Made by a program: the position numbers and the translations under genes. A model generated the notes under the pieces. The model saw nothing but the letters and a program-made list of their open reading frames with translations, was not told the origin of the DNA and ran no database searches. From the NCBI GenBank assembly GCA_944323625.1, contig CALUTD010000002.1:102168-166167 (forward strand): 64,000 bases of DNA, read 5' to 3'. The DNA comes from Candidatus Gastranaerophilales bacterium. Lineage in GTDB: Bacteria > Cyanobacteriota > Vampirovibrionia > Gastranaerophilales > Gastranaerophilaceae. Of the stretch, positions 3,689-24,990 are shown piece by piece. Position 1 is the first letter of the stretch. Each line of letters opens with the position of its first letter.

Positions 3689-3697
3689 GGGGGGGGG
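3689..3697 (+). repeat. Homopolymer G9 tract, 10 nt after the helicase stop codon
   Basis: Direct count: g at positions 3689-3697. Confidence 0.95.
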
Positions 3698-3797
3698 TGA
3701 CAATCCAAGTAACAATATATTAAAACTAATACTCAAGTTTACATTTGTAAAAATTAGGGAAGATATGATAGTATAAAGCAAATAAGGAGATAAAATT

Positions 3798-4530
3798 ATG
3801 AATAAATTAATTGACCACTACGGGGGGGGGTAGAAACAGAGTAGTTTTTAGAATACTCTTTTCTTCACAAAAATTTTCATTTACACTTGCAGAAGTACTA
3901 ATAACACTTGTTATTATCGGAGTTATTGCAGCTATAACGGTTTCTTCTTTAATTGCTAATACCCAAAAACAAGAATATATTTCAAGATTAAAAAAGGCCG
4001 ATTCCGTTTTAAGACAGGCATTATATAAAGTCGCAATTGACTCGGGATATCCTGTTGGTGATTTTTCTTTTGTTTCAGATTATGAGTTTTTTGATGTTCT
4101 TAAAAAACATCTGAATACTATAAAAGTTTGTACAAAATCAGGTCAAGACTGTTTTCCTTCCGGTACAAAAACTTTAAAAGGGCAATTTCATTCTGATTAT
4201 AATAATATTGTATCATATTACACTCCGGCTTTTGTAACAGCTGACGGAATTGCGTTTAATTTTCAATGTTACGGAAGTGAAAAGTATTCATTTCAAAATA
4301 AAGGAATTTCAGAAGAAGATATTGAAAATGCACTTTGCAGAATTATGATAGATGTAAACGGGCAAAGTTCTCCCAATACATTTGGACGTGATTCTTTTTT
4401 TCTAATTATAGTAAACGGTAAAGGAGTTGTCGCAGCAGGGAGCGGAAATGACTCTGCAGATTGCAGCAAAAACGATAAAGGTTTTACATGTGCCGCACGA
4501 GTTTTGAAAACCGGTAAAATGGATTACTGA
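3798..4530 (+). CDS. Type IV pilin/pseudopilin-like protein (prepilin-type N-terminal FTLAEVLITL helix), out of frame as sequenced (phase-variable)
   Basis: RBS AAGGAGA at 3784-3790 and ATG 3798 give MNKLIDHYGGG and then stop at TAG 3831. The body (track ORF 3811..4530, ...RNRVVFRILFSSQKFSFTLAEVLITLVIIGVIAAI...) lies in the +1 frame. Eight or eleven G would restore the frame. Confidence 0.8.
3822..3830 (+). repeat. Homopolymer G9 tract inside the pilin leader codons (slipped-strand switch candidate)
   Basis: Direct count: g at positions 3822-3830, flanked by tac...tagaaacag. Confidence 0.95.
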
Positions 4531-4917
4531 TTAATTCTTTTTTGTATTTTCCAAAAAAGCCCTTATACACTGGTTTATGCTTGCCGGGGTACTTAATGTA
4601 TTCTTTCTTTTTCGCTTATTATGCTTTATATTGGAGGTTTCAATATATTCATAATTGTTATTATCGGGTTTTATTCTTTTTTTATAAAAAAAGTAAAACC
4701 CATAAATAACCAAAATACACAAAAACATTACCCCGAAAGATATTGCAATTTTCCCCATAACAAACGATAATTCACTATTTGCGGCCGAAGATTGTTCGCT
4801 TTCTAAGTTTAAAGGTTCAGAAGAGACAGAAACAGTAGTTTCTGTCTCTTTAGGTAATTCGGGTATAACAGTATTAAATAAATCACTGTTTGCAGCAATA
4901 ATATAATTATTATGCAT
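4531..4917 (-). CDS. Small single-pass membrane protein, function unknown
   Basis: 128-aa ORF with one hydrophobic helix (IAISFGVMFLCILVIYGFYFFY). It overlaps the rne stop by 8 nt, so it belongs to the same operon. Confidence 0.55.
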   Translation of the reverse strand: MHNNYIIAANSDLFNTVIPELPKETETTVSVSSEPLNLESEQSSAANSELSFVMGKIAISFGVMFLCILVIYGFYFFYKKRIKPDNNNYEYIETSNIKHNKRKRKNTLSTPASINQCIRAFLENTKKN

Positions 4918-6736
4918 TTACAACCGCTTCACTTTCAGTTTTCTTTTTATTTTTAGAAGGTTTTCGCCCCGGTTTCTTTTTTGGAGTTTGTTGTACATCA
5001 TCTTCTGATATACTTACCGTTGAAGGTTCATCCGGCTTAACTTCTTGAACAGTTTGAGCTTGTTTTCTTTTTCTGCCGGCGCCTCTTTTTGGTTTCTTTT
5101 CAGATTTTGTTTCTTCAACCGGCTCTTCAATTACAGGCTCTTGTAAACCATTTGTTTCAGATGGAATTAAAAGTTGTTTTTCTTCCTGCTCAATAACAGC
5201 CTGTTCTTCAAGCACAACGGGCTGTAAATCTTTAATTTCTTCAATTATTTGTTCTGAAACCTCAGATGGTTTATTGTTTTCCTGTCTGCGATCATTTCTG
5301 TATTTAAAGTTTTTCTTTTGATTATTATTATACTGATTATTTTGATTGTTATTTTGCCCGTTATTCTGTTGTACGGCAGAATTTTGTTCTGTTTCTAAAA
5401 GCGGGTTATTATTAGGATTATTAAATACCTTGTTCTGTTTATAATTAGGTGTTTTATTTTTTACCTGTTGAACAGGAATTTTAAGTTTTGCTGCTTTTGC
5501 TTTAATTTCACCTTCTGCAACGGGAGAAGAGAATGTTAAATCATCGGCAATATAACCTGTTCCCTGACAGTGAGGACATTTTTTTCCAAAAATTTCCGAT
5601 AAAGCTTGCCCCTGACGATGTCTTGTGAGTTCTACCAAACCCAAATCAGATAACTGACCTACTTGAGGTTTTGCTTTATCTTTTTCAAGCGCAATTTCAA
5701 GCTCTTCCATTACTGCCAGTTTATCTTTTCTGTTGTTCATATCGATAAAATCTATAATAACCATACCGCCGATATTTCTAAGCCTTAACTGGCGGGCAAT
5801 TTCATGTACTGCTTCAAGATTTGTTTTTACAATAGTCTCATCCTGCGTATTTGAACTTACAAATTTTCCGCTGTTTACGTCAATAACGGTCAAAGCTTCT
5901 GTTGTCTGTACAAAAAGGTAGCCGCCGCTGGGAAGATTTACTTTTGTTTGAAGTGCTGCTTTTATTTCTTTTACGACTCCGGAAGCAGCCAAAAGAGTTT
6001 CAGAACCTTTATAAACGTTTACTTCAATATTTTTTGTCATATTCCAATTTTGCAAAATCTGTTGTGTTCTGTGAACACCATAAGAAGTATCCAAAATTAT
6101 TTCGTCGACATCCTCGGTGCATTCTTCTCTCATAACTCTGTATAACAAATCCTGATCTCTATATAAAAGACTTGGAGCAGGTCTTGTTTCTGCAGCCGTC
6201 ACGATGGTATTCCATTTTTCAAGCAAAATTTCCAAATCTTCCTGAATATCGGCATCTGACTGACCTTCTGCTTCTGTTCTGACTATAACACCGACTCCCA
6301 CGGGTTTTAGTAGTCCGATTATTGATTTTAATCTTGCTCTTTCTTTCATATTTACTATTTTTTTTGAAACATTAATACCCGTTTCTTGAGGCATTAAAAC
6401 TAAAAAACGCCCCGGTAAGCTTATCAGAGTGGAAACTCTCGGCCCCTTATGCCCTACGGGTTCTTTTACTACCTGAACAATAAGTTTTTGTTTCGGAGCA
6501 AGTTTCTCTTTTAAAGTTCCTTTTCCTATTGCATCATGAGCATGCAAAAAGCCCATCTTATCATATCCGACATTTACAAATGCCGCATCTATACTGGGGA
6601 GTATATTATCTACGGTTGCAAGATATACATCATTAAGAAGCATATCCCCTTTCTGAACATAAAATTCACAAATTTTTCCGTCTTCTATAACTGCCGCAAT
6701 ATTATCTCTTTCAGCTACAACTATTGCTTTTGACAT
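4910..6736 (-). CDS. rne: Ribonuclease E/G family endoribonuclease
   Basis: N-terminal S1-like region; MVIIDFIDM catalytic-core motif; CPHCQGTGYI zinc-link motif. The tail is long, rich in N/Q and K/E, and of low complexity. Confidence 0.85.
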   Translation of the reverse strand: MSKAIVVAERDNIAAVIEDGKICEFYVQKGDMLLNDVYLATVDNILPSIDAAFVNVGYDKMGFLHAHDAIGKGTLKEKLAPKQKLIVQVVKEPVGHKGPRVSTLISLPGRFLVLMPQETGINVSKKIVNMKERARLKSIIGLLKPVGVGVIVRTEAEGQSDADIQEDLEILLEKWNTIVTAAETRPAPSLLYRDQDLLYRVMREECTEDVDEIILDTSYGVHRTQQILQNWNMTKNIEVNVYKGSETLLAASGVVKEIKAALQTKVNLPSGGYLFVQTTEALTVIDVNSGKFVSSNTQDETIVKTNLEAVHEIARQLRLRNIGGMVIIDFIDMNNRKDKLAVMEELEIALEKDKAKPQVGQLSDLGLVELTRHRQGQALSEIFGKKCPHCQGTGYIADDLTFSSPVAEGEIKAKAAKLKIPVQQVKNKTPNYKQNKVFNNPNNNPLLETEQNSAVQQNNGQNNNQNNQYNNNQKKNFKYRNDRRQENNKPSEVSEQIIEEIKDLQPVVLEEQAVIEQEEKQLLIPSETNGLQEPVIEEPVEETKSEKKPKRGAGRKRKQAQTVQEVKPDEPSTVSISEDDVQQTPKKKPGRKPSKNKKKTESEAVVNA

Positions 6737-9261
6737 AATTTTTCCTTTTCTGAATCCTTATAACTTAACTCATTCATATTTTCGTCATAGAATTTAGTTC
6801 TTACAATTCTGAACTTAACATCAGGCCTAAACAATCCGATTACATCTTCAGGTTTTACGGACGGTATATCCATTGATTGCCCTGTTTTTAAAATCATATA
6901 CAGAGTATTATTTTTTACTTCTGCAGATTTTATTGACGGTTTAATATTAACAAGTTTTTTAATACCTTTTTTATTTATCTTCTCAATTAATATTTCATCC
7001 TTCGAAGATATCATATTTTTAATATACAACAAATCTTCATTTTTTAAAATACCCTCTTTTAACGAAGTAAAAGTATACAATGCCCATTGTGCAGTTATAT
7101 CAATAGATGGGGTATTTTTATCAATTTTTACTGAATTTATTACATTTATATTATTGGGCAGAACATTATTTAATATATTTGTTAATTTATCAGGGGGTAA
7201 ATCATTATAAATCTCTATATCAATTAATTCACAAATACTTTCAACAAAAATCGGAAGCGCAATACCGAGCGAAAATTTTGGTGACGGATTAAAACCTTGT
7301 GAAAAACATAAATCAAGTCCTGAACGGTATAACGCTTTTATAATTGTATTTTGCCAATCTAAATGAGATATATATCTCATTTCATTTTCTTTTGTAATTT
7401 TAATTCTGTATCTGTATGATATACGTTCTTTTGTATTTTCAACATTATTCTGAGTATATTCAAACGGTTTATCCAAAACTTTATGAGTCTTAAAATTTTT
7501 ACATACACCGCAATTTACACACATAAACTCGCAAGGAGTAATGTTTACGGCATTCATTGCATTATTATACTGCTCAATAAGCCATTTTTTATCAATTCCC
7601 GTATCAATAATATCCCATGGGAGTTCTTCATTAATACAAAAACTTTTTTGTGCCTCTTCATCTATATTGAAGCCGCATTCAAGTGCCGTCTCTTCCCACA
7701 AATTCTTATCTATATTTTCATCCCATGTAGAAAGGTATACTCCTTTTTTATGAAGTGACAGTATGAAATCATTGTATTTGCTGTCGCCTCTTGTTAATGC
7801 ACATTCAACTTTCGAAGTAAAACTATTGTGATAATTGAGTTTTACACCTTTTATAGATTTTACTTTTTCTTTTAAATATATTATTTTTTCTCTTACACTT
7901 TTTTGTGACTCTTGAGGACACCACTGAAAAGGCGTAAAAGGTTTAGGAACAAAAATTGAAACCGTACAGGTTAAATTTAGCCCATCTTTTAATTCAAATT
8001 CTTTTTTTATTTGTTTTGATTTATATCGTATTTTTGCAAGTAATTCTGCCATTTCATCTAAATCTTCATAAGTTTCGGATGGCAGCCCTATCATAAAATA
8101 CAGTTTTACATTTGTAAATCCTGATTTATAACATTTTAAAATTGTGCTTATAATTTGTTCTTCACTAAGATTTTTATTAATTACATTCCTTAATTTTTGG
8201 CTTCCTGCTTCAGGAGCAAGAGTAACTGTTGTTGAGCGAACTCCTCTGACCAAATGCGCCAGTTTTTGGCTGTATCTGTCTATTCTTTGGCTTGGAAGAG
8301 AAACCGATATTCTTTTTTTATTCATTTTTTCGGAAAGTGTTTCAATAAGACTTTCTATATTCTGATAATCATTTGATGACAACGAAAGAAGCGAATACTC
8401 ATTATATCCCGACAAAGCTGTTGATTCTTCAACCATTTTGATAATATCGGAAGCTTTTCTTTCACGAACGGGAAGATTTACATGCCCGGCCTGACAAAAT
8501 CTGCACATTCTTCCGCAGCCTCTTCTTATTTCAACTATCGTTCTATCGTGTATTCCCGATGAATAGGGAACGGGAGATTTTATTATTTTTGTATCACGGG
8601 AAATATCATATATTCGTTTTTTTGTTTTATTTTCTTCTTCGGGAGAAAATATTCCTTCAATTTTTGATAATTCTTTTATTATTTGTTTTCGATTTAAACC
8701 TAGTTTTTTTAATTCATAATAATTTTGCATAAGTTCAGGCAAAAGCTCTTCACCGTCACCAATCATGAATAAATCAATAAAATACTGAATAGGGCGCGGA
8801 TTAAAACAGCAAGGACCGCCTGCCGTTACTATAGGCATTTCTTCTGTTCTTTTCTTTCTTAAAACAGGGATTCCCGATAATTTTAGCATTTCAAGTACTG
8901 TTGGATATGCAAGCTCATATTGAAGTGAAAATCCGATAATATCAAAATCTTTAACCGGTTTCTTGCTTTCAAGCGAAGAAAGCAGCCTGTTTTCAGATAT
9001 TAAAATTTCACGGTAATCGGTTTCGGGAGCATAAACTCTGTCGGCCATAAAATTTTCGTGAGAATTAATAACATCATAAAGTATTTTTTGGCCTAAATTG
9101 CTTATTGCAATCTCATATTTATCAGGGAATGCAAAGACCATTTTAACCTTTGCAGCATCAAAATCTTTGTTATATGCCAAATATTCCGACCCTATATATT
9201 GATATGGCTTTTTTACATTATATAAATTACACTGGGTATCTATAGGTAATTCTGTATTCAT
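6721..9261 (-). CDS. Radical SAM protein fused to a DUF2344-like C-terminal domain (TIGR03960 + TIGR03936 type)
   Basis: 846 aa with the CGRMCRFCQAG (CxxxCxxC) cluster motif. The N-terminus resembles a B12-binding-like region. The C-terminal ~230 aa (YRYRIKITKENEMRYISHLD...) matches the radical-SAM-associated domain family. Confidence 0.7.
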   Translation of the reverse strand: MNTELPIDTQCNLYNVKKPYQYIGSEYLAYNKDFDAAKVKMVFAFPDKYEIAISNLGQKILYDVINSHENFMADRVYAPETDYREILISENRLLSSLESKKPVKDFDIIGFSLQYELAYPTVLEMLKLSGIPVLRKKRTEEMPIVTAGGPCCFNPRPIQYFIDLFMIGDGEELLPELMQNYYELKKLGLNRKQIIKELSKIEGIFSPEEENKTKKRIYDISRDTKIIKSPVPYSSGIHDRTIVEIRRGCGRMCRFCQAGHVNLPVRERKASDIIKMVEESTALSGYNEYSLLSLSSNDYQNIESLIETLSEKMNKKRISVSLPSQRIDRYSQKLAHLVRGVRSTTVTLAPEAGSQKLRNVINKNLSEEQIISTILKCYKSGFTNVKLYFMIGLPSETYEDLDEMAELLAKIRYKSKQIKKEFELKDGLNLTCTVSIFVPKPFTPFQWCPQESQKSVREKIIYLKEKVKSIKGVKLNYHNSFTSKVECALTRGDSKYNDFILSLHKKGVYLSTWDENIDKNLWEETALECGFNIDEEAQKSFCINEELPWDIIDTGIDKKWLIEQYNNAMNAVNITPCEFMCVNCGVCKNFKTHKVLDKPFEYTQNNVENTKERISYRYRIKITKENEMRYISHLDWQNTIIKALYRSGLDLCFSQGFNPSPKFSLGIALPIFVESICELIDIEIYNDLPPDKLTNILNNVLPNNINVINSVKIDKNTPSIDITAQWALYTFTSLKEGILKNEDLLYIKNMISSKDEILIEKINKKGIKKLVNIKPSIKSAEVKNNTLYMILKTGQSMDIPSVKPEDVIGLFRPDVKFRIVRTKFYDENMNELSYKDSEKEKLCQKQ

Positions 9262-9591
9262 TTATGCTAAATCTTCCGGAACATATCTTTCTACATCTAT
9301 GACAACTCCGTATGATTTATTGTTTCTAAATTCATTTAAAAATTTTAAAAGAGAATCATAAGGAACTTTATATTTGTATAAAGAAACCCCGACACCGTTT
9401 TTTTTCATAACCGTTACAATATAAAAACACATTGAAGCGTAATCAAGCAAAGCCTCTTCTTTAAAATAATTTCCATTCTCATCTTTTGAAATTTTAATAT
9501 ATGGAAATCCTTTGAAAAATCTTTGATTTTCTAAATTGTTTTTGCTCTTTTTAAATAAATTAATAACTTTATCATTATGGTTGTCAGACAT
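9262..9591 (-). CDS. Hypothetical 109-aa protein
   Basis: The ORF abuts the radical SAM start with no spacer. No motif recognised. Confidence 0.5.
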   Translation of the reverse strand: MSDNHNDKVINLFKKSKNNLENQRFFKGFPYIKISKDENGNYFKEEALLDYASMCFYIVTVMKKNGVGVSLYKYKVPYDSLLKFLNEFRNNKSYGVVIDVERYVPEDLA

Positions 9592-9647
9592 ACTACAATT
9601 GAATCTGATTTTAAGTCTACAGTCAAATTTTTAACAAATGTTCAATA

Positions 9648-10433
9648 TTATTTGCATTCCCTTTTTCCGCCCCAGGATAAATCACTGCACCTTAGGTAGT
9701 CCATATTTTCATTATAAATTACCCACGCAGTGCAGCCCATTCCGTTAACATAACTGTCATACGCACTACCAAATTTCTTAGTGTTTGTACAATACTTATA
9801 AAAAGAAATATGGTCTCCGTTTGTTCCGATAGGGTAAATTTCATCTTTTGTAAAATAAAAATCAAATAAATCACGACCCATAACATTGGGATTTTTATTT
9901 CCGTTTATGTCAACATTTATGTGACCGCATACATTCTTTACTTTTCCATATGTAAAACTACAATTCTTATTCCATGCTCTAAATTGAAAAACAAGCCCGT
10001 TAATTGTTTTAAATGCAGAATGAGTTTGTGTATTTAAATTCCTATAACAATTTTTTATTGCTTCTGCAGACGTCATATCCGTACAATCAGTTTGAACCTT
10101 CATATAAGGTATAAATTTTTTAGCAAGAATTTTATGTGATATATCATCATACATTCCCTGCATTCCCCATTCATCAGGACTTCCCTCATCTTTTAATATC
10201 ATTCCGTATGCTTGAGAAAGCATTGAATAGGCCTGTTTTACTCTTTGTACCGTTGCTTTTTCCTGTATATCCGTAATTAAAATCATAATGGTTATTGCGG
10301 CAATGACCCCTATTACAACCAAAGTAATTAAAACTTCCGAAAGAGTGAATGAGAAATATTTACAAAGGAAGGAGTTTTTAAAAAGTAACCTGTTTCTACC
10401 CCCCCCCCCGTGGCGGTTTAATGATTTATTCAT
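9648..10433 (-). CDS. Type IV pilin/pseudopilin-like protein, paralog of 3798..4530, in frame
   Basis: MNKSLNRHGGGGRNRLLFKNSFLCKYFSFTLSEVLITLVVIGVIAAI... with a Cys-containing globular C-terminal domain. AGGAG (plus-strand ctcct 10442-10446) sits 8 nt from the ATG. Confidence 0.85.
   Translation of the reverse strand: MNKSLNRHGGGGRNRLLFKNSFLCKYFSFTLSEVLITLVVIGVIAAITIMILITDIQEKATVQRVKQAYSMLSQAYGMILKDEGSPDEWGMQGMYDDISHKILAKKFIPYMKVQTDCTDMTSAEAIKNCYRNLNTQTHSAFKTINGLVFQFRAWNKNCSFTYGKVKNVCGHINVDINGNKNPNVMGRDLFDFYFTKDEIYPIGTNGDHISFYKYCTNTKKFGSAYDSYVNGMGCTAWVIYNENMDYLRCSDLSWGGKRECK
10399..10409 (-). repeat. Homopolymer G11 tract (C11 on the plus strand) encoding the GGGG of the pilin leader
   Basis: Direct count: c at positions 10399-10409. 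Confidence 0.95.
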
Positions 10434-10556
10434 AATTTCTTCTCCTTTTTAATTTATATTACTATATTTTCAAAATATATCAAATATTGATTCATAAATC
10501 TTAATATATAAGCAAATTTTATGTTTCACCGATTTTAAACGTAAAGGGCAAAGGAA

Positions 10557-24371: not shown

Positions 24372-24791
24372 TTATTCAGATTCCGAATCTGATATTTTAT
24401 CCTTTACAAATTCAACTATTTCACCCGTCATAAGAGTTGAGCTAACAACACCTTTTTTAATTCCATCAATTAAGGATTCGCCTAATTCTTCAGTATTTTC
24501 TTTTAATGTTTCAACAAATTCTGCACCGCCGGCTTTTGCTTTGTCAAGAATTGAACCTTCTTCTTCAACTGCTGCTTTGCCGCCTTGAATAAAAGCATTG
24601 CCTTCTGTAGCAATTCCATTAACTAAGAATTCGCCTAATTCTTCAGTATTTTCTTTTAATGTTTCAACAAATTCTGCACCGCCGGCTTTTGCTTTGTCAA
24701 AAATTGAACCATCTTCTTCAATTGCAGCTTTGCCGCCCTGAATAAAAGCACTGTGCTCTGCAGCATTTTCAAAAATTTTTTTAATTTCCAT
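24372..24791 (-). CDS. Small acidic protein made of two tandem 51-aa repeats, function unknown
   Basis: AFIQGGKAA(I/V)EE(D/E)GSI(F/L)DKAKAGGAEFVETLKENTEELGE occurs twice. No signal peptide or transmembrane segment. Confidence 0.6.
   Translation of the reverse strand: MEIKKIFENAAEHSAFIQGGKAAIEEDGSIFDKAKAGGAEFVETLKENTEELGEFLVNGIATEGNAFIQGGKAAVEEEGSILDKAKAGGAEFVETLKENTEELGESLIDGIKKGVVSSTLMTGEIVEFVKDKISDSESE
24476..24751 (-). repeat. Intragenic tandem duplication (period 153 nt, two ~123-nt near-identical copies)
   Basis: 24476-24598 versus 24629-24751. The first 72 nt are identical, followed by about 6 mismatches. Confidence 0.9.
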
Positions 24792-24831: not shown

Positions 24832-24990
24832 CGGGGGGGGGGAACTTTAGGGTTTAATTCGCATAATTTACAAAAATTAACAATAGTAAAATATTTTTTA
24901 ACAAAAAAATATTTACGTGGTTTTAAAATAGCATATTAATAAACAGGAACAAAAAAACATGAAAAAATTATCAAAAAATCCCCCCCCCCG
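24832..24990. promoter_or_regulatory. Segment bounded by a perfect 12-nt inverted repeat, cG10a (24832-24843) and tC10g (24979-24990); candidate phase-variation element
   Basis: Direct count of both tracts. The 135-bp AT-rich interior lies upstream of the gene starting at 24791 and contains TTGTAA-N18-TAAAGT on the minus strand, abutting the tract. Confidence 0.5.

Follow-up and report, generated by a model that had tools for sequence, protein, structure and literature searches.

Why should a pilin-like gene that is open over its whole length be set out of frame with its own ribosome-binding site and start codon by a run of guanines? The question is raised by a stretch of 64,000 nucleotides (the whole of which is referred to below as the window) from a Candidatus Gastranaerophilales bacterium (contig CALUTD010000002.1 of assembly GCA_944323625.1, positions 102,168 to 166,167 of the forward strand), in which one such gene ('gene 1', on the + strand, ending at 4530) is accompanied by a paralog ('gene 2', 9648-10433, on the - strand). 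The answer that we consider probable is that both genes belong to a large Gastranaerophilales pilin family, the translation of which is subject to slipped-strand phase variation at poly-G tracts in the DNA that encodes the prepilin leader, and in which the out-of-frame (OFF) state is the default.

An earlier inspection of this DNA, made from its letters and open reading frames alone (the 'sequence-only reading'), had described gene 1 as being out of frame with its start, and each element of that description was found where it had been placed. A Shine-Dalgarno (SD) sequence, AAGGAGA (3784-3790, + strand), lies seven nucleotides upstream of an ATG at 3798, and the codons that follow (ATG AAT AAA TTA ATT GAC CAC TAC GGG GGG GGG TAG) encode only MNKLIDHYGGG, the OFF product (3798-3833, + strand), before translation ends at TAG 3831-3833, immediately after a homopolymer of nine guanines (G9, 3822-3830, + strand). 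This homopolymer, the proposed switch, occupies codons 9 to 11 on the coding strand of the reading frame, near its 5' end. The pilin-like body, which had been estimated at about 230 codons, comprises 233 codons and a stop (GRNRVVF...KMDY, 3829-4530, + strand); it occupies the +1 frame, without interruption between GGT 3829 (GGT AGA AAC ...) and the stop codon at 4528-4530. A tract of n guanines joins ATG 3798 to this body when n = 2 mod 3 (G8 or G11, the ON lengths that had been predicted); with G9, the window allele of gene 1 is OFF.

It might be supposed that the pilin is translated from some other start, either TTG 3811 or a codon downstream of the tract, and that G9 is irrelevant. The open reading frame (ORF) listed at 3811-4530 depends solely on TTG 3811, which is in frame with G9 and is used by gene callers (as in protein P0001), and in three diverged alleles from other assemblies (L025-L027; the prefix L marks loci and contigs retrieved from such assemblies) a TTG situated six codons before the phenylalanine of the conserved FTLAE motif (Phe+1) would give MLQKAS/FTLAE, the slash preceding that residue. 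However, TTG 3811, for which the sequence-only reading had found no ribosome-binding site, lies 20 nucleotides from the SD sequence, and it is not conserved, having been lost in L025 and L026 (which read ATTAACC) and in L176. The downstream TTG of the other alleles has no SD sequence, and the window allele contains no ATG, GTG or TTG in the +1 frame between G9 and Phe+1 (3880-3882), again as had been noted from the sequence. The SD-ATG pair, with its spacing of seven nucleotides, is conserved in both paralogs and in the family at large, and we give translation from another start hardly any credence.

The tract itself is anomalous in its setting. In a window with a G+C content of 31.7%, five runs of G or C of at least nine nucleotides (lengths 9-11) were observed where 0.007 would be expected, and runs of seven or eight were absent. 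GGG accounts for only 11.7% of the glycine codons, and the four other Gly-Gly-Gly tripeptides in long ORFs are encoded by mixed codons. The excess of tracts, the rarity of GGG and the mixed coding of these tripeptides together argue that the homopolymer has been selected as DNA, and not as poly-glycine.

The same layout is repeated in gene 2, as had also been proposed. This paralog (261 amino acids, 9648-10433, - strand, identified from the ORF list and by its match to the TIGR02532 family) is preceded by an AAGGAGA sequence (10441-10447, - strand) located seven nucleotides 5' of its ATG (10433-10431), which is followed by seven codons, a tract of eleven guanines (10399-10409, - strand, and thus C11 on the + strand) and TAGAAACAG. 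With G11 the gene is translated in frame to MNKSLNRHGGGGRNRLLF..., and is ON in the window by the same rule that applies to gene 1 (n = 2 mod 3). The two proteins are 32% identical.

Because the look-up of exact proteins in other assemblies is biased towards G9, tract lengths were re-sampled by way of neighboring genes. For gene 2, the tract was G9 in L173 and L174, G10 in L001, L003/L017, L018 and L175, and G11 in the window and in L172; the flanking DNA was otherwise identical across these samples, of which those with G9 and G10 are OFF and those with G11 are ON. Tract length in this cassette thus varies in nature, and all three frames are represented. Gene 1 was found with G9 in the window, in L001-L013 (three ONAT22 samples, two Logan runs, BRZ_EG and BRZ_BM) and in the diverged alleles L025-L027; that length recurs in at least 11 assemblies and in every contig spanning the tract except L176, an allele from BRZ_N in which G10 is followed by CAG, and both lengths are OFF. 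The comparison of tract lengths across orthologs that the sequence-only reading had suggested thus yields three lengths for gene 2 and two for gene 1, and the combination that it had named as contrary to its own view, an invariant G9 together with a translation start downstream of the tract, was not encountered, there being no conserved downstream start.

These data also bear on whether the G9 of gene 1 is an error of homopolymer sequencing or assembly, the real tract being G8 or G11 and the gene plainly in frame. Such runs are undeniably hazardous for assembly: contigs L014 and L032 end inside or beside tracts, L003 begins with a remnant of an Illumina adapter adjoining a tract, L030 is chimeric, its parts meeting at a C run, and in L009 the tract, next to an N10 scaffold gap, is interrupted (GGGGGGAGGG) and preceded by a different sequence; many of the contigs, moreover, have a coverage of 3-10x. 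Against an error stand the recurrence of G9 in those eleven or more assemblies, which span several studies and were produced by several assemblers (scaffold_, NODE_, k87_ and Logan contigs), and the fact that a single contig, L001, has G9 for gene 1 and G10 for gene 2. Since different lengths are called on one contig, and since G11 and G12 are commonly called, there is no systematic miscall of one base, and we consider an assembly error to be very improbable.

While no allele of gene 1 has been seen in frame, its body bears the marks of a working gene. Over 702 nucleotides it differs from L025, L026 and L027 at 41 positions, with a synonymous divergence (dS) of 0.18-0.20, a nonsynonymous divergence (dN) of 0.026-0.030 and a dN/dS ratio of 0.13-0.16; no stop codons, insertions or deletions separate it from those alleles, and the 100 nucleotides 5' of its SD sequence are identical in all of them. 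Gene 1 is under purifying selection, and must therefore be expressed at times. That it is instead a decaying, frameshifted pseudogene would accord with the fact that no assembly shows it in frame, but is contradicted by this low dN/dS ratio and uninterrupted body at a dS of about 0.19, by the full conservation of the upstream 100 nucleotides and by the intactness of its OFF relatives, in 67 of 68 of which the body is open for at least 147 amino acids; decay is the explanation in which we place the least belief.

A scan of metagenomes for runs of at least eight guanines located 30-60 nucleotides 5' of DNA encoding the conserved motif FTL(A/S)EV indicated that the two genes of the window are part of a much larger set. 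It returned 105 loci, mostly from human-gut assemblies and often several to an assembly, with 107 instances of a tract that represent 78 distinct genes (at 95% identity). An SD-ATG pair was present 20-100 nucleotides 5' of the tract in 96 of the 107, the AAGGAGA sequence and the spacing of seven nucleotides being common to gene 1, gene 2 and the family cassettes; relative to that ATG, 86 were OFF and 10 were ON. The tract was G10 in 69 instances, G11 in 17, G9 in 8, G12 in 6, G8 in 2 and longer in 5. Bodies downstream of OFF tracts are as intact as those of ON genes, with the same median open length from Phe+1 (225 amino acids). The association with the pilin leader is a close one: in the 747 kb of sequence that were fetched, 123 of 141 tracts of at least eight guanines lie in the sense leader of the pilin motif. 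Fourteen genes were represented in more than one assembly; tract length differed in 3 of these, two of which are pairs in opposite states (L118 with G11, ON, versus L142/L152 with G10, OFF; and L120 with G10, ON, versus L133 with G11, OFF).

One further gene extends the design beyond this family. Locus L051 (contig CALUUI010000001.1, from Candidatus Gastranaerophilales BRZ_AN bin102, a different Gastranaerophilales species) encodes a large secreted protein that is not a pilin (MDIKSLQFNNNNTSSPAGGGGRNSAIPVKTIVLAVLLFCVSPFAMAAG...), and its leader is arranged as SD, ATG, 17 codons, G11 (5548-5558 of the locus) and TAGAAAC, in frame, so that genes other than those for pilins carry the switch too. 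Outside genes of the window type, only L051 shares the G(n)TAGAAACAG design, the copies in the sheep-rumen bacterium RGIG6874 and in Elusimicrobia occurring in different contexts. The possibility that G(n)TAGAAACAG is an autonomous conserved element was rejected: it has 34 matches in species-representative genomes, which is about the number expected by chance, the pilin layout is absent from all of these, and none comes from the species of the window. A leader pattern specific to genes 1 and 2 had no matches in the metagenome collection.

The identity of the proteins rests on several features. Both contain FTL(A/S)EVLITLV(I/V)IGVIAAI with Phe+1 and Glu+5, and both exceed the cut-off of the NCBIfam model for the prepilin N-terminal cleavage/methylation domain (TIGR02532; 17.4 bits for gene 1 and 17.2 for gene 2, against 16.3), the score against the Pfam model N_methyl falling slightly under its own (20.6 versus 21.2). 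In gene 1 a class III signal motif (3877-3954, + strand) consists of Ser(-1) at 3877-3879, Phe(+1) at 3880-3882 and Glu(+5) at 3892-3894, followed by the hydrophobic helix FTLAEVLITLVIIGVIAAITVSSLI that was identified by a motif scan. There are more than 1,100 homologues. Where a name is given, it is 'type II secretion system protein' and the source is Candidatus Gastranaerophilales; short leaders (MKKG/FTLAEV, for example) predominate among them, and in another genomic context, an allele (P0128, from L028) likewise has a short leader, MKKN/FTLSEV, and no tract. The EF-Tu encoded in the window falls into a cluster, at 90% identity or more, with that of Candidatus Avigastranaerophilus, Melainabacteria and 'Cyanobacteria bacterium SIG29'. 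By these criteria of sequence, gene 1 is judged to be a type IV pilin-like (prepilin) gene. An AlphaFold2 model of its product (predicted local distance difference test score, pLDDT, 89.5) has an N-terminal helix of 52 residues (26-77), six strands and a beta-sheet head, which as modeled is the generic layout of a pilin. A Foldseek search of the PDB found no solved structural relative (best E value 0.76), and the head may represent an undescribed pilin fold; its cysteines C107, C114, C218 and C227 are conserved, which in the model suggests two disulfide loops. Gene 2 has, in addition, a weak match to Pfam DUF6613.

Taken together, these observations are best accommodated by the following mechanism, which we regard as probable. 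Ribosomes would start at the SD sequence 3784 and ATG 3798, and at tract lengths of n = 2 mod 3 (G8 or G11) would read the tract as Gly-Gly-Gly(-Gly) and continue into the prepilin; at G9 they would terminate immediately at TAG 3831. Slipped-strand mispairing during replication would add or remove single guanines, thereby producing a reversible and heritable alternation of ON and OFF. As the tract lies in a leader that prepilin peptidase would be expected to remove, by cleavage after Ser(-1), ON lengths that differ by three would leave the mature pilin unchanged. The family is a large one, with a tract in each copy (two copies in the window) and with most copies OFF, so that a population of cells could display different sets of pilins, much as Neisseria does with opa, presumably at the cell surface, where host immunoglobulin A (IgA), phage or niche might act as the selective agent. 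OFF would be the default because the ON frame falls at G8 and G11, as opposed to the lengths of G9-G10 that poly-G tracts favor.

That last point draws on measurements in Campylobacter jejuni, in which the modal length of poly-G tracts is G9-G10, G8 and G9 favor insertions, and G10 and G11 favor deletions, the rates per division being 38.8e-4 for G11 to G10 and 3.7e-4 for G10 to G11 (PMC3401435). Under comparable biases in the present family, a gene that is ON at G8 or G11 would be OFF by default, with a small ON subpopulation. Such a bias appears to fit gene 1 (G9 or G10), gene 2 (mostly G9 or G10 and sometimes G11) and the major class of the family (54 G10, OFF), and on its own would predict a ratio of G10 to G11 of about 10:1, which is close to the 54 G10-OFF and 5 G11-ON instances counted when all classes are taken together; the OFF majority, by this calculation, need not reflect selection alone. 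The ERZ779843 class departs from the bias, having tracts of G11 and an ON frame at G10, and so points to selection against the ON state as well.

Several observations weigh against phase variation as the explanation. Across about 14 assemblies, which included alleles at a dS of about 0.2, gene 1 never appeared with an ON tract; the sequence-only claim of a slipped-strand switch is otherwise upheld, by the loss of TTG 3811 in other alleles, by the purifying selection on gene 1 and by the variation in tract length of both genes and of the family. All of the tract data derive from consensus assemblies, many at 3-10x coverage. Lengths within classes are strikingly uniform, with G10 in 54 of the 57 OFF cassettes that need one additional nucleotide, and this uniformity might be tighter than is expected of independent hypermutable tracts. 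The residue at -1 is serine in both window genes (3877-3879 and 10352-10350), in place of the glycine or alanine that is usual there and that most of the 120 listed homologues possess, and cleavage of the leader is consequently not assured. Finally, the neighbors of the locus that carry Pfam labels include no pilus machinery, being housekeeping genes (for a helicase, RNase E/G, a radical-SAM enzyme, PGI and the RNase P protein). In a related Gastranaerophilus, the genome does contain pilA, pilB, pilC, pilT and pilD (PMC5877343).

The uniformity of the tracts and the silence of gene 1 could both be turned to a different account, namely that G9 and G10 are the working state and that slippage by RNA polymerase or frameshifting by the ribosome (+1 at GGG-TAG for G9, or -1 within the run for G10) provides each cell with a fixed, low level of full-length prepilin. 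This would explain how 86 of 96 cassettes can be out of frame and yet have intact bodies, how purifying selection can act on gene 1 when no ON allele of it has been observed, and why lengths are nearly uniform within classes; the window sequence GGG GGG GGG TAG A, furthermore, resembles a shifty stop following an SD-like run of guanines. A shifty stop preceded by an SD-like run is also the arrangement in prfB. The shift that would be needed, however, differs from gene to gene (57 OFF cassettes require +1 nucleotide and 27 require -1), gene 2 occupies all three frames (G9, G10 and G11), the consensus in some samples is the in-frame allele, and the stop codon on which an event of the prfB type would depend is not conserved, the TAG after the tract being CAG in L176 (G10). 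An RNA element in the leader was considered and rejected, since SD/anti-SD pairing is possible around the tract but three leader folds were no better than shuffled sequences (z 0.07-0.30), which gives no sign of a stimulatory structure beyond the SD-like run itself. Rfam has no matches near any tract, its only matches in the window being three tRNAs, and no tRNA-Gly (which might have been a candidate for quadruplet decoding of the sufD type) was found in the window. The dominance of OFF states is, in addition, accounted for by the mutational bias described in C. jejuni (PMC3401435). Recoding as the explanation is thus unlikely, albeit a proposal of some substance, and it may make the OFF states leaky. 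A slightly smaller chance is accorded to the stronger claim that the tracts are more than stochastic switches, and that the uniform lengths one base away from ON (G10 in 54 of 57; for gene 1, G9 in 11 or more assemblies) are held by selection, with slippage or frameshifting as the normal route of expression; were it true, every cell would produce many pilin paralogs at a low and tunable dose, a recoding-based repertoire in an uncultured sister lineage of the Cyanobacteria.

Phase variation by slippage at homopolymers is textbook biology for a small number of pathogens (Neisseria, Campylobacter, Helicobacter and Haemophilus), and in Bordetella the fim genes are switched by a poly-C tract in the promoter. 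The closest parallels to the cassettes described here differ from them in instructive ways. The opa genes of Neisseria also form a multigene surface family in which every copy has its own repeat, located in DNA that encodes a cleaved leader, and is independently ON or OFF, mostly the latter (PMC3960869); there, however, the repeat is the pentanucleotide CTCTT, the leader is a Sec signal peptide and the products are beta-barrel adhesins of the outer membrane, whereas here a mononucleotide tract, a class III prepilin leader and pilins are involved, in a different phylum. The pilC tract of N. gonorrhoeae and N. meningitidis is located in the signal-peptide region, and PilC is a tip adhesin or an antagonist of retraction encoded by one or two copies, whereas here it is the pilin subunits that carry the tract. 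The resemblance to the present genes is that pilC, a gene connected with pili, has close to its 5' end a poly-G tract of at least nine nucleotides, at which frameshifts turn it ON and OFF (PMC5953494, citing Jonsson 1991). The phasome of C. jejuni is likewise found in a genome of about 30% G+C, with over-represented G/C tracts of 8-11 nucleotides that lie mostly on the coding strand and in genes for surface structures (PMC3401435); its targets differ, being mainly enzymes of glycosylation, capsule, lipooligosaccharide and flagellar modification with tracts spread through their reading frames, and a conserved leader cassette shared by a family of paralogs is not part of it, its approximately 29 loci per genome having been verified experimentally. 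A promoter poly-C switch such as that of Neisseria opc (PMC3960869) is relevant to the tracts of RGIG6874 and to the intergenic tracts at 3689, 24833 and 24980 that are described below; switches of that type are transcriptional, in contrast to the translational leader cassette.

The surroundings of genes 1 and 2 include several features of separate interest. A second, intergenic G9 (3689-3697, + strand), on which the sequence-only reading had not remarked, begins eight nucleotides past the stop codon of the helicase gene and about 100 nucleotides 5' of ATG 3798. It is G9 in strains of the window type, G4 in L025-L027 and G3 in L176, and the 100 nucleotides that separate it from the SD sequence are 100% conserved despite the dS of about 0.19 in the gene body; it may be a second variable element (acting on transcription or on spacing) or a tract expanded de novo. 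At its other end, gene 1 converges with a 128-amino-acid ORF (4531-4917, - strand) with zero intergenic bases (4528-4533), and there is accordingly no room for a terminator between them. Gene 2 is the head of a tightly packed and partly overlapping block on the - strand (4531-10433), in which it is followed by a 109-amino-acid ORF, a radical-SAM/DUF2344 gene, the RNase E/G gene and the 128-amino-acid ORF; if these are co-transcribed, early termination in an OFF gene 2 could exert polar effects on housekeeping genes.

Tracts in other positions were also encountered. Within the window, G10 (24833-24842) and C10 (24980-24989) form an inverted, intergenic pair of 10-mers, 137 nucleotides apart, 5' of a gene for an internally repeated protein of 139 amino acids (24372-24791, - strand), one of the tracts being about 41 nucleotides from its ATG; their lengths are unchanged in L031, L029 has C8 and nearby substitutions, and no ORF or Rfam family accounts for them. 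In RGIG6874 (L037, L040 and L048), a C8-9 tract directly adjoins a TATAAT sequence about 110-130 nucleotides 5' of pilin genes that belong to the same family (FTLAEVLITLVIIGVIA), and looks like a promoter-type poly-C switch as opposed to a leader-coding one. In metagenome-assembled genomes of Elusimicrobia (L039, L042, L046 and L047), tracts of G8-G12 are placed where small leader ORFs (MKNIF...) end, with a sigma-70-like promoter on one side and genes for secreted proteins on the other, and have an upstream flank, CCGACGG(A/T)AAAATT(TT)C, that is common to L039 and L042 and has close variants in L046 and L047. Six further gut tracts (L071:5095, L128:472, L076:5686, L107:661, L113:1304 and L140:6397), all G10 apart from the G9 of L140, read on the opposite strand as SD, ATG, about eight codons and C(n), and seem to define a second, non-pilin class of genes with a 5' poly-C tract.

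The mechanism proposed here is already known; the lineage, the gene family (with pilin subunits as the target) and the scale are new, and the literature that was searched contained no paper linking Gastranaerophilales to phase variation. A device familiar from pathogens is found on the pilin subunits of uncultured, non-pathogenic Gastranaerophilales (Melainabacteria) of the gut, and a single scan recovered 78 distinct genes that possess it, approximately 90% of them OFF among those with a recognizable SD-ATG pair. If the proposal is correct, gene callers would systematically mis-annotate such genes as truncated or TTG-started ORFs (as in P0001 and P0129), and the tracts would break or chimerize metagenome contigs. 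These commensals, for their part, would continually vary their pili, probably under pressure from host antibody or phage.

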